A DNA stretch of 46,720 nt from an uncultured Candidatus Saccharibacteria bacterium (GTDB taxonomy: Bacteria > Patescibacteriota > Saccharimonadia > Saccharimonadales > AWTP1-31). Location of the stretch: assembly GCA_964629815.1 (NCBI GenBank), contig CAZVTA010000003.1, positions 1-46,720 on the forward strand, read 5' to 3'. The stretch's first letter is position 1. Each line of letters opens with the position of its first letter. Both the position numbers and the translations under genes were made by a program. Shown piece after piece: positions 24,002-41,406 of the stretch. The notes under the pieces are model-generated. The model was not told the DNA's origin. It saw only the letters and a list, made by a program, of their open reading frames with translations, and made no database searches.

Positions 24002-25657
24002 GTGGCTCGTATAATATTTTATGATTGTTCGGATTTAGATGTTGCACAACTCAAGGCAAGTGCCAAAGAGCTGGGGCATCAGTTGGTGTTTAAATCAGAA
24101 CAGCTTACCCCTGAAACGGTCGACAAAAAAGCCGATGTTGTGAGTGTTTTTGTTTCGAGCAATATAAATGAGGCGTTGTTCGATCTTATGCCGAACGTTC
24201 GGCATATTGCTTGTCGCTCGACTGGCTTCGACAATGTAGATATTGCTGCGGCCGATAAGCGGGGAATTGTCGTAACCAATGTTCCTTCGTACGGCGAACA
24301 CACAGTTGCCGAGTATGTTTTTACATTGCTTCTGGCGCTGAGTCGAAAGTTACCTGCAAGTTTGGCTGGCGTAAAATCGGGCAAGATTGTTCAAACGGAA
24401 TACACTGGATTTGATCTGAATAGTAAGGTAATGGGTATTGTGGGGGCGGGTAAAATCGGACGTCGTGTTGCCGAAATTGCCAATGGTTTTGGCATGCATG
24501 TGTTGGCGTATGATCCTTTTGCAGATCCGGCATTGGCCGAAGCGTCGCACTTTACCTATGTTTCACTCGATGAACTGCTGAAAAACAGCGATGTTATATC
24601 GTTGCACGTCCCACAGACACCAGACAATGTGCACCTTATTAATAAAGCAGCATTATCAAAAATGAAAAAGTCCGCAGTGCTTGTTAATACGGCCAGGGGC
24701 GGCATTGTAGATACCGAAGCGCTCATTAATGCGCTGGATAAACAGCAGATTGCCGGTGCCGCACTCGATGTACTAGAAGGTGAACAGTTGCTGAAAGTTC
24801 AAGAAGAGCTGTTGTTGCTCAGACAAGCGCATGTCGACGCCAAGATGCTTAAACTCAGTGCAGAACTTAAAGTGCTCGAAGCTATGCCAAATGTAATTAT
24901 TACGCCGCATAGTGCATTTAACACCGTAGAGGCTATCGGACGTATCAACAAAACCGCGATCGATAACATTAGCGCCGTCTTAATTGGCAAGCCCATTAAT
25001 GTTGTTAAGACTATTACCGCTCATCCAGGAAAGTTGATTATTATGCGGCATGGCGAAAGTGAATGGAATGCGCTTGGAGTTTGGACGGGTTCGAGGGATG
25101 TGCATTTAAGCGAGAAGGGTTTTAAAGAAGCGGCTTTACTTGGAAGACAAGTTACCGACATATCGTTCGATATTTCGTTTACCAGCCAGCAAATACGGGC
25201 GCTCGAAACGCTCGAAGGTGTACTCGATTCTTCGCAACAGTTTGACGTGCCTATCGAGCGTTCGCCGGCGCTGAATGAGCGTGATTACGGTGACTATACC
25301 GGCAAGAACAAGTGGCAGGTTAAAGAGCAACTCGGCGAAGAAGAATTTGATAAACTGCGCAGAGACTGGGATTATCCGGTGCCAAATGGCGAAACGCTCA
25401 AGGACGTTTACGATCGCGCTGTGCCTTTTTATCAGCAGCGGGTGGTGCCGCAATTGATGGCAGGGAAAGACGTGTTGATTGTATCTCATGGTAATGCCAT
25501 CCGTGCACTCATGAAATATATTGAATCTATTTCCGATCAAGATATTGCCAACACTGAAATGATTTTTGGAAAAATTCTCATCTACGATGTGGATGCTCAA
25601 GGTAAAACGACCAAAAAAGAAGAGCGGGCGATCGAAACTGAACTGCCACCGGCCTAG
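24002..25657 (+). CDS. Fusion protein: D-isomer-specific 2-hydroxyacid dehydrogenase (SerA/LdhA-like) with 2,3-BPG-dependent phosphoglycerate mutase (GpmA-like)
   Basis: N-terminal part: GIVGAGKIGRRVA (GxGxxG), NTARGG, ITPHSAF. C-terminal part from about aa 340: LIIMRHGESEWN, ERDYGDYTG, SHGNAIRAL. It is one uninterrupted ORF. GTG start 8 nt after TATAAT 23988-23993. Confidence 0.85.
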   Translation: MARIIFYDCSDLDVAQLKASAKELGHQLVFKSEQLTPETVDKKADVVSVFVSSNINEALFDLMPNVRHIACRSTGFDNVDIAAADKRGIVVTNVPSYGEHTVAEYVFTLLLALSRKLPASLAGVKSGKIVQTEYTGFDLNSKVMGIVGAGKIGRRVAEIANGFGMHVLAYDPFADPALAEASHFTYVSLDELLKNSDVISLHVPQTPDNVHLINKAALSKMKKSAVLVNTARGGIVDTEALINALDKQQIAGAALDVLEGEQLLKVQEELLLLRQAHVDAKMLKLSAELKVLEAMPNVIITPHSAFNTVEAIGRINKTAIDNISAVLIGKPINVVKTITAHPGKLIIMRHGESEWNALGVWTGSRDVHLSEKGFKEAALLGRQVTDISFDISFTSQQIRALETLEGVLDSSQQFDVPIERSPALNERDYGDYTGKNKWQVKEQLGEEEFDKLRRDWDYPVPNGETLKDVYDRAVPFYQQRVVPQLMAGKDVLIVSHGNAIRALMKYIESISDQDIANTEMIFGKILIYDVDAQGKTTKKEERAIETELPPA

Positions 25658-25706: not shown

Positions 25707-26096
25707 ATGAACGATGTCTTTAGAAGAATTTCTCAGAGGGTAGCACTCGTTGTCGGTAGTGCGCGTGCGTTTATCGTAGCGCTTATTATTGTTATCGTGT
25801 GGGCGCTTGCGGGGCCTATTTTTCACTATTCAGATACATGGCAGTTGGTCATTAATACCGGAACAACTATTGGCACATTTCTTATCGTATTTCTTATTCA
25901 GAATACACAAAACAGAGATACGCGTGCCATACACTTAAAACTCGATGAGCTTATCAACGTTAATAAACGGGCGTCGGATCGATACGTTGACCTCGAGGAT
26001 TTAAGCGACGAAGAATTGGATCGTTTACACAAACATTTCAAACAGATGCATGATAGGGTCGAAGCCCATAGACATAGTCGTCGAGCTAAGCAATAA
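25707..26096 (+). CDS. Low-affinity iron permease family protein
   Basis: SDTWQLVINTGTTIGTFLIVFLIQNTQNRDTRAIHLKLDELI matches my recollection of the family signature. Confidence 0.7.
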   Translation: MNDVFRRISQRVALVVGSARAFIVALIIVIVWALAGPIFHYSDTWQLVINTGTTIGTFLIVFLIQNTQNRDTRAIHLKLDELINVNKRASDRYVDLEDLSDEELDRLHKHFKQMHDRVEAHRHSRRAKQ

Positions 26097-26137
26097 TTGG
26101 TGGCACATCGGCCCTAGCAATAGCTGCTTATATCTGT

Positions 26138-26143
26138 TATAAT
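26138..26143 (+). promoter_or_regulatory. -10 element (TATAAT) upstream of the tRNA-Arg locus
   Basis: TATAAT lies 11 nt before the first tRNA-like sequence, with a weak -35 (TAGCAA) at 17-nt spacing. Confidence 0.4.
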
Positions 26144-26154
26144 TTGCCGGTCGC

Positions 26155-26200
26155 GCACCGGTAGCTCAGTGGATACTGGTCTCTGTCTTCGGAACAGAGG
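26155..26200 (+). pseudogene. Partial 5' copy (46 nt) of tRNA-Arg(UCG) with a disrupted D stem
   Basis: Identical to 26329-26374 except for an 8-nt substitution (ACTGGTCT versus TAGAGCAT). No T arm or acceptor 3' strand follows. Confidence 0.6.
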
Positions 26201-26328
26201 TGAGAACAATCAGTGATTGTTCGCAAGGCAACCTTCACTTGCAAACTTGTTTGCATAGCAGAAGTTGCGGGGTCGCCAAAGGTGACCGGGCCGACCCGAT
26301 TAAAATATAGGTTCGTTTGTAGAAATAA

Positions 26329-26405
26329 GCACCGGTAGCTCAGTGGATTAGAGCATCTGTCTTCGGAACAGAGGGTCGGGGGTTCGAATCCCTCCCGGTG
26401 TACCA
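26329..26405 (+). tRNA. tRNA-Arg(UCG), CCA encoded
   Basis: GCACCGG acceptor, GCTC-AGTGGATTA-GAGC, TCTGT-CTTCGGA-ACAGA (anticodon TCG), GGGGG-TTCGAAT-CCCTC, CCGGTGT, A, CCA. Confidence 0.9.
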
Positions 26406-26419
26406 GGTAAAATATCAAG

Positions 26420-26439
26420 CCATCCATTCGGATGGTTTT
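26420..26439 (+). terminator. Intrinsic terminator after tRNA-Arg(UCG)
   Basis: CCATCC-ATTC-GGATGG followed by TTTT. Confidence 0.6.
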
Positions 26440-26574
26440 ATATTTTAGCTCGATGTATCGAGCACGGATTTGAACCCCCTATGTTCGGCGTAGCAATACC
26501 ACGCGCAGATACTTGTATCGAGCATGGTAGAGCGGAGGAGCCGCGAAGGCGGCGATATCCCTCCCGGTGTACCA
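26440..26574 (+). repeat. tRNA-3'-end-capped element, copy B (Arg-linked, divergent)
   Basis: Ends (26557-26574) in an exact 18-nt copy of tRNA positions 26388-26405 including CCA. Shares GAGCA.G..GAGGA and a GCCGC..GGC.GC hairpin with copy A. Confidence 0.45.
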
Positions 26575-26582
26575 CGAAAATG

Positions 26583-26607
26583 CCTCGACTTCTTGTCGGG
26601 GATTTTT
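26583..26607 (+). terminator. Intrinsic terminator after element copy B
   Basis: CCTCGAC-TTCTT-GTCGGGG followed by ATTTTT. Confidence 0.6.
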
Positions 26608-26647
26608 CGTACTTGCGAAAGAACTATGTATCGTTAATACTGGGGCT

Positions 26648-26989
26648 ATGTTTAGAAGAAGCAAGCCGCGTGTGCCAATATATAAACAAGCAGCATGCCT
26701 CGGAGAACAGTGTCCCGCTTATAACGGAACCGGTTGTGAATCAAGGCTAGAGCTACTTGAGGCTACTGGAAGATCTGGTGGCACTGACCGTGGTCCAGAA
26801 GTAGAAGACTGCTCGTTTGCACTCTATGGCCGTGTTTGTATGGGTGGAGCCGAACAGGTCGTTGTTGAAAGAATCGCAGAATCTCCCAATGGCCACGCAA
26901 GCGCCATGGAAATGGTGGGCCGTATGGCTCGAACCGACGGCACTAGAATTGTTCTAACGACACCACCAGAAGCGGTTAAATTTGATTAG
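26648..26989 (+). CDS. Hypothetical Cys-containing small protein
   Basis: ORF trimmed to the first ATG downstream of the terminator. No motif. Confidence 0.4.
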   Translation: MFRRSKPRVPIYKQAACLGEQCPAYNGTGCESRLELLEATGRSGGTDRGPEVEDCSFALYGRVCMGGAEQVVVERIAESPNGHASAMEMVGRMARTDGTRIVLTTPPEAVKFD

Positions 26990-41222: not shown

Positions 41223-41406
41223 ACTAGAGTCCTTTCGATTATGTACTAATCGACAATCAATAAAGAGGGTTGATTGTCCGGTTACGCTACTGGCTCCTAT
41301 TTGCTCAAGCGTCCATGTACAAGCAAATACTCATAGCCTACAACCATGTGAATGGTTATATAAACAATAACACTAATGTAATAAAAAGTCAATTTCTCGG
41401 AGTTGA

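Follow-up and report, generated by a model that had tools for sequence, protein, structure and literature searches.

The window analysed here, a 46,720-nucleotide (nt) stretch of DNA from a Saccharibacteria bacterium of the candidate phyla radiation (CPR), contains an intact tRNA-Arg(UCG) gene at 26329-26405 that is flanked on both sides by partial copies of itself. Our comparison of this locus with related genomes and metagenome contigs (designated below by L numbers) points to two unrelated, protein-less structured mini-elements that bracket the gene, and to units that are gained, lost and multiplied at repeats of tRNA ends; we put the probability of this reading at about 0.5. Both elements are typical of Saccharibacteria, and the partial tRNA copies are the outer edges of inserts rather than working pieces of tRNA. 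Positions without a contig name refer to the window and, unless stated otherwise, to its forward strand.

The tRNA-Arg locus and its two inserts

ARAGORN and Rfam (RF00005, 68.8 bits) agreed on the tRNA-Arg gene, in which the CCA is encoded. Rfam searches of the whole window at the gathering threshold, and of 26050-26700 at E values up to 10, matched only this tRNA at the locus and no known RNA in the spacer upstream of it. The relatives of the neighbouring proteins belong to Saccharibacteria and other Patescibacteria.

Our repeat search and k-mer scan bore out the partial copies reported in an earlier note on this DNA. Positions 26155-26200 repeat tRNA positions 1-46 (40/46 identical), with all six mismatches confined to 26175-26182, and 26557-26574 is an exact 18-nt copy of 26388-26405, the 3' end of the gene. 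The chance expectation for an exact 18-mer in 2 x 46.7 kb is approximately 1e-6, and among the six tRNA genes of the window only those for Arg(tcg) and Pro(tgg) have copies of their ends.

The locus, a gene for a low-affinity iron permease followed by tRNA-Arg(tcg), was compared with its counterparts in five relatives, whose permeases are 66-72% identical. In L081, L082/L083, L085 and L086, a plain tRNA-Arg directly follows the same promoter box, GGTGTTATAAT, which is located 13-30 nt upstream of the gene in L081, L082, L085 and L086; L087 instead has an unrelated 95-nt leader before tRNA-Arg. The contigs that extend beyond the tRNA, L081 and L082, both have a terminator directly 3' of it, and that of L081 (CGAAAACGCCTCGGCCACTCGCCGGGGCTTTTTCG) is the counterpart of the second terminator in the window (26575-26610), which was detected by a terminator scan and which we regard as the native terminator of the tRNA gene. 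The host promoter is the extended -10 box TGTTATAAT at 26135-26143, read from the sequence, which includes the TATAAT (26138-26143) of the earlier note and has GGTGTTATAAT as its counterpart in L081, L082, L085 and L086. Relative to these genomes, the window contains an additional 174 nt upstream and an additional 169 nt downstream of tRNA-Arg, and a tRNA-derived direct repeat bounds the extra DNA on each side. The sites in the relatives are empty, and therefore both flanks of tRNA-Arg are extra DNA relative to these relatives. The proposal that the locus had been targeted was borne out in this way, since the orthologous loci carry a plain tRNA-Arg, behind which L081 has the counterpart of the second terminator with nothing in between. 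The earlier note had counted relatives with only a plain tRNA as evidence against its reading. For the upstream insert this is literally what was found at this locus, whereas the downstream unit has an ortholog in L100; nevertheless, the feature is not trivial, given that these modules turn up again at further loci and in further genomes.

The upstream insert (26155-26328) begins with the pseudo-copy of the tRNA 5' end (26155-26200), in which an 8-nt patch, ACTGGTCT, replaces TAGAGCAT at 26175-26182. With the patch in place the D stem is lost, and pairing becomes possible with the acceptor 5' strand at 26157-26163 (ACCGGUA/UACUGGU). We considered and dropped the idea that selection had favoured the patch for sequestering the spare acceptor strand: its hairpin surpasses those of random 8-mers by a small margin only, and the fold of the full precursor is unchanged. 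Because 4.4% of random 8-mers fold as well as or better than the patch, we leave its origin unexplained. The pseudo-copy is followed by an 87-nt module with three hairpins (the U module, 26201-26287; P1, 26204-26222; P2, long, 26228-26268; P3, 26271-26287) and by an AT-rich tail of 41 nt (26288-26328). A -10-like TAAAAT at 26301-26306, read from the sequence, raises the possibility that the tail serves as an outward promoter.

The earlier note had left this upstream part unexplained, and its motifs place it in a second family, that of the three-hairpin module, with further members in L001, L005, L050, L061 and L066. In this family P1, P2 and P3 are joined by UGAG, CGCAAG and GGGGUCGC...GUGAC; all joiners are present in the window, as UGAG, GCAAG and GGGG, and P2 is expanded there by approximately 20 nt. 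A covariance model (R1) built from L061, L066 and L050 only, with the window excluded, matched 26197-26290 with 21.9 bits and an E value of 2.2e-4 (filters off, whole window), the next best match having an E value of 2.6; in L005 the E value was 7e-21. The sequences of P1 and P2 are quite different among the window, L050 and L061/L066 yet remain paired, and P3 likewise differs and stays paired. Two of the three hairpins that had been proposed in the spacer, GAACAATC/GATTGTTC and GGTCGCC/GGTGACC, proved to be real and conserved helices of the family, whereas GCAAG/CTTGC is not a conserved pair, GCAAG being an unpaired joiner in other members.

The same layout was found upstream of tRNA-Ile in L061, L066 and L005, and a more divergent U module, detected by motif only, lies upstream of tRNA-Gln in L001. 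The member in L050 is inside the start of a GH1 glycosidase gene, where an exact 32-nt repeat starting at the ATG lies on either side of the module plus tail, and it ends in AGCTAAAATATTGT just ahead of the restored ATG. The flanking copies of the 5' end measure 46 nt in the window (40/46), 32 nt in L050 (exact), 25 nt in L061 and 19 nt in L001, and the left tRNA copies span positions 1-19, 1-20, 1-25 or 1-46. In all five cases (5/5) the duplication begins no more than 3 nt from the first base of the gene, namely at +1 of the tRNA (window, L001, L061 and L073) or at the ATG (L050). A search of 80 metagenome loci with the upstream model and a regular expression yielded no further U members, the U motif had no match in viral contigs, and no homology was found between the upstream insert of the window and the upstream region of L100.

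Two other arrangements were seen at tRNA genes on these contigs. In L073 (85-420), an open reading frame (ORF) for a 78-aa GIY-YIG nuclease lies between a 20-nt copy of the 5' end of tRNA-Asn and the intact tRNA-Asn, and a second small GIY-YIG nuclease ORF is located between two tRNA-Met genes (L073:9920-10114). Behind tRNA-Ile(GAT) in L066 (888-1070) and L061 (1281-1460) there is a copy of positions 38-75, 69 nt after the tRNA, which is exact (38 nt) in L066 and decayed in L061; the L066 gene is also flanked by a long inverted repeat of its spacers that could form a processing stem.

The downstream unit (26406-26574) starts with terminator A (26406-26446; stem at 26417-26438 followed by a T run), which was detected by the terminator scan. 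It is absent from the empty site of L081 and is homologous to L100 299-343, with compensatory changes in the stem. The scan also placed the second terminator-like hairpin at 26583-26601, so that both hairpins of the earlier note were recovered. Terminator A is followed by the hairpin GCTCGAT-GT-ATCGAGC (26448-26465), which is conserved in the first unit of L100 and overlaps the left copy of an internal direct repeat, GTATCGAGCA(C/T)GG. This repeat, already noticed before, is 13/14 nt long (26454-26467 and 26514-26527) and repeats the right half of the core of the downstream module. An antisense copy of the tRNA T arm comes next (26466-26479, the complement of positions 49-62), which a local alignment recovered and which, as an inverted repeat, is complementary to 26378-26391 at 13/14 positions; antisense T arms were also present in approximately 55 metagenome loci. 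The GTTCG at 26483-26487 (T loop to G57), by analogy with the rule of the family, could be a degenerate remnant of a sense 49-57 piece that forms the left flank of the module. The downstream module itself (the D module, 69 nt, 26488-26556) is recognised by its core motif, its metagenome matches and its covariation; it has a core at 26501-26525 (ACGCGCAGATACTTGTATCGAGCAT), a closing stem at 26497-26500/26526-26529 and a second hairpin at 26540-26553. The exact copy of tRNA positions 59-76 at 26557-26574, comprising the 3' strands of the T stem and acceptor and ACCA, forms the right end. The period of the unit is therefore 169 nt with an 18-nt 3' copy, and the 151 nt between the 18-nt repeats contain no plausible gene.

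A sister unit lies behind tRNA-Pro (78-253) and was identified by core motif, k-mer scan and local alignment. Its parts are a terminator, an antisense piece of positions ~71-47, a sense piece of positions 47-58, the module (core at 188-212) and a 16-nt 3' copy at 238-253. The kinship that the earlier note had proposed between the two loci (1-290 and the downstream part at tRNA-Arg) held up, the common core being RCGCGCARA-NNN-TT-NNN-TYGAGCAY, and, as read from the sequence, the terminator stems at the Arg and Pro loci look alike in swapped positions. A tRNA-like minihelix fold of the downstream unit was rejected, because the T-stem pairing of the Arg copy is not kept in the Pro copy.

Distribution, fold and turnover of the downstream units

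The core occurred four times in 1.25 Mb, each time just before a copy of a tRNA 3' end, and units that share it were located behind tRNA-Arg, tRNA-Pro and, in L001, tRNA-Gln. A stricter pattern matched 100 metagenome contig stretches, of which 80 were fetched, giving 81 cores. A tRNA on the same strand was present within 400 nt upstream of 62 cores, and 34 of the 81 were followed, 20-45 nt after the core, by an exact copy, at least 15 nt long, of the 3' end of that tRNA; 22 anticodons were represented. Seven cores were cut off by the contig end. Among the remaining 12, 11 were located behind a pseudo-3' end finishing in ...NCCA, and the twelfth (L113) looks like a chance match.

The order of the parts was constant: the tRNA, approximately 45 nt with a terminator hairpin, an antisense T arm (from ~65 to 49), a spacer of 15-20 nt, a sense copy of positions 49-57, a module of 56-81 nt, and a sense copy from position 59 to the 3' end. 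The unit in the window follows this order, with all parts present at 26406-26574 and the sense 49-57 piece reduced to GTTCG. At 13 of the 30 loci that could be scored exactly, the left flank ended at G57 and the right flank started at N59; at four more, A58 could be assigned to either side. The D module, as far as these junctions tell, is placed by a rule that depends on the shape of the tRNA and not on its sequence. Three matches of the D motif in viral contigs were all chance matches inside coding sequence, and our literature search found no description of either module in Saccharibacteria or Patescibacteria. In L040 (8190-8360) and L063 (900-1078), from Nomurabacteria-like and other Patescibacteria, a module of another, longer kind lies behind tRNA-Trp and tRNA-Tyr, with an antisense T arm on one side and a sense copy from position ~56 on the other; it appears to be a second type of downstream module.

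To assess the fold, we examined covariation in 52 distinct cores against 500 shuffles and against registers slid by 1-3 columns. In the two helices, 90.4% of cells were paired, compared with 70.6% in shuffles, and none of the 500 shuffles scored as high. The covariation score was 0.621 versus 0.251 in shuffles and at most 0.098 in slid registers. The search pattern had imposed only part of the core, and the unforced positions, assessed separately, covaried as strongly (71-73 of 75 Watson-Crick); the closing R-Y pair was A-U or G-C in 74/75. The internal loop CGCGCA/GAGCA was invariant, the hairpin loop was CUUG or UUUA, and tandem G-A/G-A positions flank the outer stem. These results suggest that the module is a fold read on the strand of the tRNA, as RNA or single-stranded DNA; the counts of G-U versus A-C did not settle which strand is read.

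Changes at the same tRNA gene were visible in L100, a contig more distant than L081, where tRNA-Arg(tcg) is followed by three tandem downstream units. Unit 1 aligned end to end with the unit in the window (125/155 identical), with compensatory changes in the terminator and the core hairpin. The T stem of the tRNA reads GGGGG/CCCTC in the window versus GTAGG/CCTAC in L100, and the 3' copies match the tRNA of their own genome. The tandem units of L100 (299-720) each end in ATCCTACCCGGTGTA(CCA); the core of unit 1 is degenerate (ACGTGCAG...CGATAAG), and unit 2 lacks the CCA. These alignments show that one and the same tRNA gene may have a single downstream unit, a tandem array or none. The tRNA-Arg of the window is closer to that of L081, which has no unit, than to that of L100; therefore, either L081 has lost its unit precisely, across the 18-nt repeat, or units have been re-made or transferred. 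On our reading, selection maintains both the fold of the module and the match between a 3' copy and its local tRNA, and the unit therefore probably also acts as a folded RNA or folded single-stranded DNA, whether to propagate itself or to serve the host.

A gene of 327 aa in L001 lies between two units that are identical over 173 nt, and the repeat is bounded by CAGCCA. The 327-aa ORF (L001:18360-19866) has no Pfam match, and the unit at the ORF ends in a diverged tRNA-like 3' end, GGGTTCCAGACCTACATGCTCAGCCA.

Proposed gain and loss of units, and rival explanations

For the recombination mechanism, as for the expression and any function of the two elements, we infer the following from their arrangement. 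The upstream insert would arrive with a long duplication of the 5' end of its target, such that the 46-nt copy stays with the host promoter. The TGTTATAAT promoter would now drive the pseudo-half, the module and the tRNA as one precursor, and the tRNA would be made either from a leader of approximately 180 nt that is removed by RNase P or from the -10-like box in the tail, the insert supplying or tolerating transcription into the tRNA. On the other side, the conserved two-hairpin module (approximately 65 nt) sits between G57 and N59 within a partial copy of the T arm and acceptor. Downstream units would be gained, deleted and amplified when the tRNA 3' end recombines with its copy, through unequal or site-specific crossing-over, probably by enzymes encoded elsewhere, and the gene would always be left intact.

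Several observations weigh against this reading. The direction of change is unpolarised: L100, the more distant contig, has a unit and the closer L081 has none, so that what we call insertion may instead reflect retention as opposed to precise loss. Module identity between different tRNAs does not exceed 89% and gives no sign of recent transposition; by this measure the D modules are old, maintained copies that have undergone no recent burst. Three tRNA-derived segments match the local tRNA in many genomes, which simple carry-over by a mobile element does not explain, and the alignment of the 5' duplications with gene starts (5/5) is not predicted by a plain staggered-cut duplication. A host function would account for the compensatory changes between orthologous units no less well than a selfish element would. 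Among the nine window ORFs that flank the tRNA loci, Pfam identified no recombinase, transposase or reverse transcriptase, and clustering of the ORFs near the 81 D elements revealed no recurrent mobilisation gene except a large serine recombinase at three loci. Finally, in the RNA runs, coverage at the locus was confined to the tRNA itself and came from reads of other organisms.

The alternative that survives best, although we regard it as doubtful, is that the unit is a host small-RNA gene whose product mimics the 3' half of its own tRNA, contains a conserved module for protein binding and is processed as tRNA 3' ends are. The upstream module would then be a structured leader RNA, the partial tRNA copies would have a function of their own, and the copy-number changes would be incidental, as has been proposed for the tyrT/RtT repeats of E. 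coli. In its favour are the purifying selection on individual copies, the strong conservation of core sequence and structure across approximately 75 loci, the compensatory changes between orthologous units at the same tRNA, and a 3' copy that keeps its identity with the local tRNA although the remainder has diverged to ~81% identity. It would also account for the fixed orientation and position behind the tRNA and for the terminator that each unit possesses. However, only two of the six tRNA genes in the window have a unit, and close relatives lack one at the same tRNA; no promoter is evident between terminator A and the unit in the region of the terminator scan, and the acceptor 5' strand that a tRNA-like minihelix would need is missing or decayed. 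The confinement of RNA coverage to the tRNA bears on this explanation as well, and the U module at the start of a protein gene, with its 32-nt duplication (L050), is left unexplained by it.

An unlikely route is RNA-mediated copying, in which module RNA would be joined to a cellular RNA fragment, either because a reverse transcriptase switches templates or because the module reverse-splices into an exposed loop. The complementary DNA would recombine into the parent gene and leave a pseudo-copy whose start or end coincides exactly with that of the RNA. The start of the 5' duplications within 3 nt of the gene start would follow naturally, the gene in L050 being probably leaderless; so would downstream copies that end at CCA or the discriminator base, insertion points that coincide with tRNA loops (D loop, variable loop and T-loop position 58) and upstream tails that are AT-rich or simple repeats. 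Against this, the copies in L040 and L066 lack the CCA where the tRNA gene itself lacks it, which means that mature tRNA did not serve as the template at these genes. None of the copies was seen to have a reverse transcriptase nearby, and neither the antisense T arm nor the terminator of the element itself is explained.

It is rather improbable that the repeats are attL/attR scars of decayed islands or prophages (CIME-like remnants), left by a tyrosine or serine integrase acting at the tRNA gene. The extra DNA is bounded by a direct repeat from the T loop to the 3' end, the tRNA is intact and sites in relatives (L081) are empty; a repeat of this kind is the classical signature of a tRNA-targeting integrase, an example being mycobacteriophage Ms6, whose attB is located in the T loop of tRNA-Ala (PMC1762012). 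In Caldiarchaeum subterraneum, a 1.8-kb recombinase-encoding element has left a tRNA 5' fragment upstream of the intact gene (PMC3293823), and the upstream side of our locus parallels it in outline only: here too, inserted DNA separates a tRNA 5' fragment from the intact gene, but it consists of 128 nt of structured non-coding DNA rather than 1.8 kb with a recombinase. At our locus there is no integrase gene between the repeats, the insert or "island" is only ~150 nt, and the same scaffold recurs behind tRNAs of all specificities, with at least 22 different tRNAs involved. The DNA next to the repeats holds antisense and second sense pieces of the local T arm, instead of arm sequence unrelated to the tRNA, and the module lies exactly between G57 and N59, which no att model predicts; the U module, moreover, also inserts in a protein gene. 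Integrases that target tRNA genes account for the repeat from T loop to 3' end and not for the interior of the unit.

Serine-recombinase elements do occur at tRNA 3' ends in related contigs. Large serine recombinases (Pfam Resolvase, Recombinase and Zn ribbon) abut the 3' ends of tRNA-Arg, tRNA-Glu and tRNA-Gly in convergent orientation (L092:269-7600, L127:60-4621 and L131:1979-3610), and their junctions indicate that such elements use tRNA 3' ends in this clade. The recombinase elements of L092 and L127, 4-7 kb long, finish in a GTT(A/C)CA...NCCA pseudo-3' end with a downstream element behind it, which favours the att-scar explanation. Unlike the downstream unit, though, these elements share only 6-10 nt with the tRNA at their junctions, and their end motif, GTTCCAG...NCCA, differs.

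Chance similarity, or a decayed tandem triplication of the tRNA gene that involved no special element, can be dismissed as very improbable: the start-to-start spacings are alike (174 nt and 169 nt), but the spacers belong to conserved families of other genomes and have no likeness to a tRNA, the copies are exact, and the sites in relatives are empty.

A bolder reading, which we advance tentatively and regard as doubtful, is that the D module, and perhaps also the U module, defines a new element class aimed at the folded shape of the tRNA. A fold of approximately 65 nt, as RNA or single-stranded DNA, would be set at T-loop position 58 whatever the identity of the tRNA, with antisense and sense copies of the local T arm as possible guides, and would be kept in step with the tRNA. 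It could be either a programmable, trans-mobilised recombination site, that is, a tRNA-anchored analogue of attC, or a partner RNA for individual tRNAs.

Known systems, significance and neighbouring features

The nearest described system is that of the 178-bp repeats of Escherichia coli tyrT/tyrV (RtT RNA, Rfam RF00391), which are units behind a tRNA that each end in its last 19 nt. The present units are likewise non-coding, ~170-180 nt long, located behind a tRNA and terminated by its last ~19 nt with CCA, and they can be tandem (three in the L100 ortholog and one in the window). They differ in that the RtT covariance model gave no match, either at the gathering threshold or in 26050-26700 at E values up to 10. 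In addition, many genomes and no fewer than 22 different tRNAs are involved, the units include an antisense T arm, and their conserved module has an exact place in the T loop of the partial copy.

Integron attC sites are structured imperfect inverted repeats of 60-140 nt, and in clusters of attC sites lacking integron-integrases (CALINs) the recombinase is possibly encoded elsewhere in the genome. Compared by fold and layout, the downstream unit resembles attC in being an imperfect inverted repeat whose structure is kept by compensatory change, and it can separate single-gene units beside a fixed anchor, as with the one gene between two identical units in L001. By contrast, its inverted repeat is the T arm of the neighbouring tRNA, and most units carry no gene. 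No integron integrase was present among the ORFs examined.

Small dispersed repeats, such as miniature inverted-repeat transposable elements (MITEs), Correia/NEMIS, Rickettsia palindromic elements and REPINs, are short, protein-less, hairpin-rich and present in many copies. Our inserts are similar in lying in or next to genes and in having promoter-like ends. Unlike MITEs, neither insert has terminal inverted repeats (repeat search), and the duplications are 16-46 nt long, variable and stop at gene ends, rather than being short and of fixed length. In a comparison with miniature elements derived from IS200/IS605 insertion sequences and with guide (omega) RNAs, the D module was found to have two hairpins, always after the T-loop GTTCG and followed by an 18-19-nt tRNA segment; neither TnpA nor TnpB was seen near the 81 D copies. 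A tRNA intron, whether of group I or of the archaeal bulge-helix-bulge type, was rejected: the functional tRNA is uninterrupted, the modules are located only in truncated copies, and no intron in Rfam matched.

The genomes of Saccharibacteria are tiny, and each of their tRNA genes seems to be present in a single copy. Despite this economy, many of these genes carry conserved, folded, non-coding passengers. The D module, a motif with no counterpart in Rfam, shows strong covariation and is placed with single-nucleotide precision in the T-loop copy of tRNAs of every specificity. If the module is a recombination site, variable DNA may be built at tRNA ends in the CPR in an integron-like or tyrT-like manner; if it acts as an RNA, it would be a new partner of tRNAs.

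Short-read assemblies break at these repeats, which may also be mistaken for tRNA fragments or att sites. In the source sample, the Logan short-read contig (L084) stops within tRNA-Arg at window position 26364, and the next contig begins at 26376; the assembly is broken by the 46-nt repeat together with tRNA k-mers common to other organisms. When DNA runs were mapped to the locus for strains with or without the inserts, no joints were seen, and only the assembly break at the repeat was apparent.

Several other features of the window were observed. The first gene after the tRNA-Pro unit (582-2048) encodes a HATPase_c_3 (MutL/Hsp90-like) ATPase and is followed by ORFs with no Pfam match, raising the possibility that these genes are island cargo behind tRNA-Pro. 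A small Cys-rich ORF is preceded by a c-di-GMP-II riboswitch aptamer on the reverse strand (41267-41350), which scored 62.1 bits and so exceeded the gathering score. Finally, an ORF of 551 aa at 24002-25657 fuses a D-isomer 2-hydroxyacid dehydrogenase domain to a histidine-phosphatase (phosphoglycerate-mutase-like) domain, and most of its relatives match one half only.

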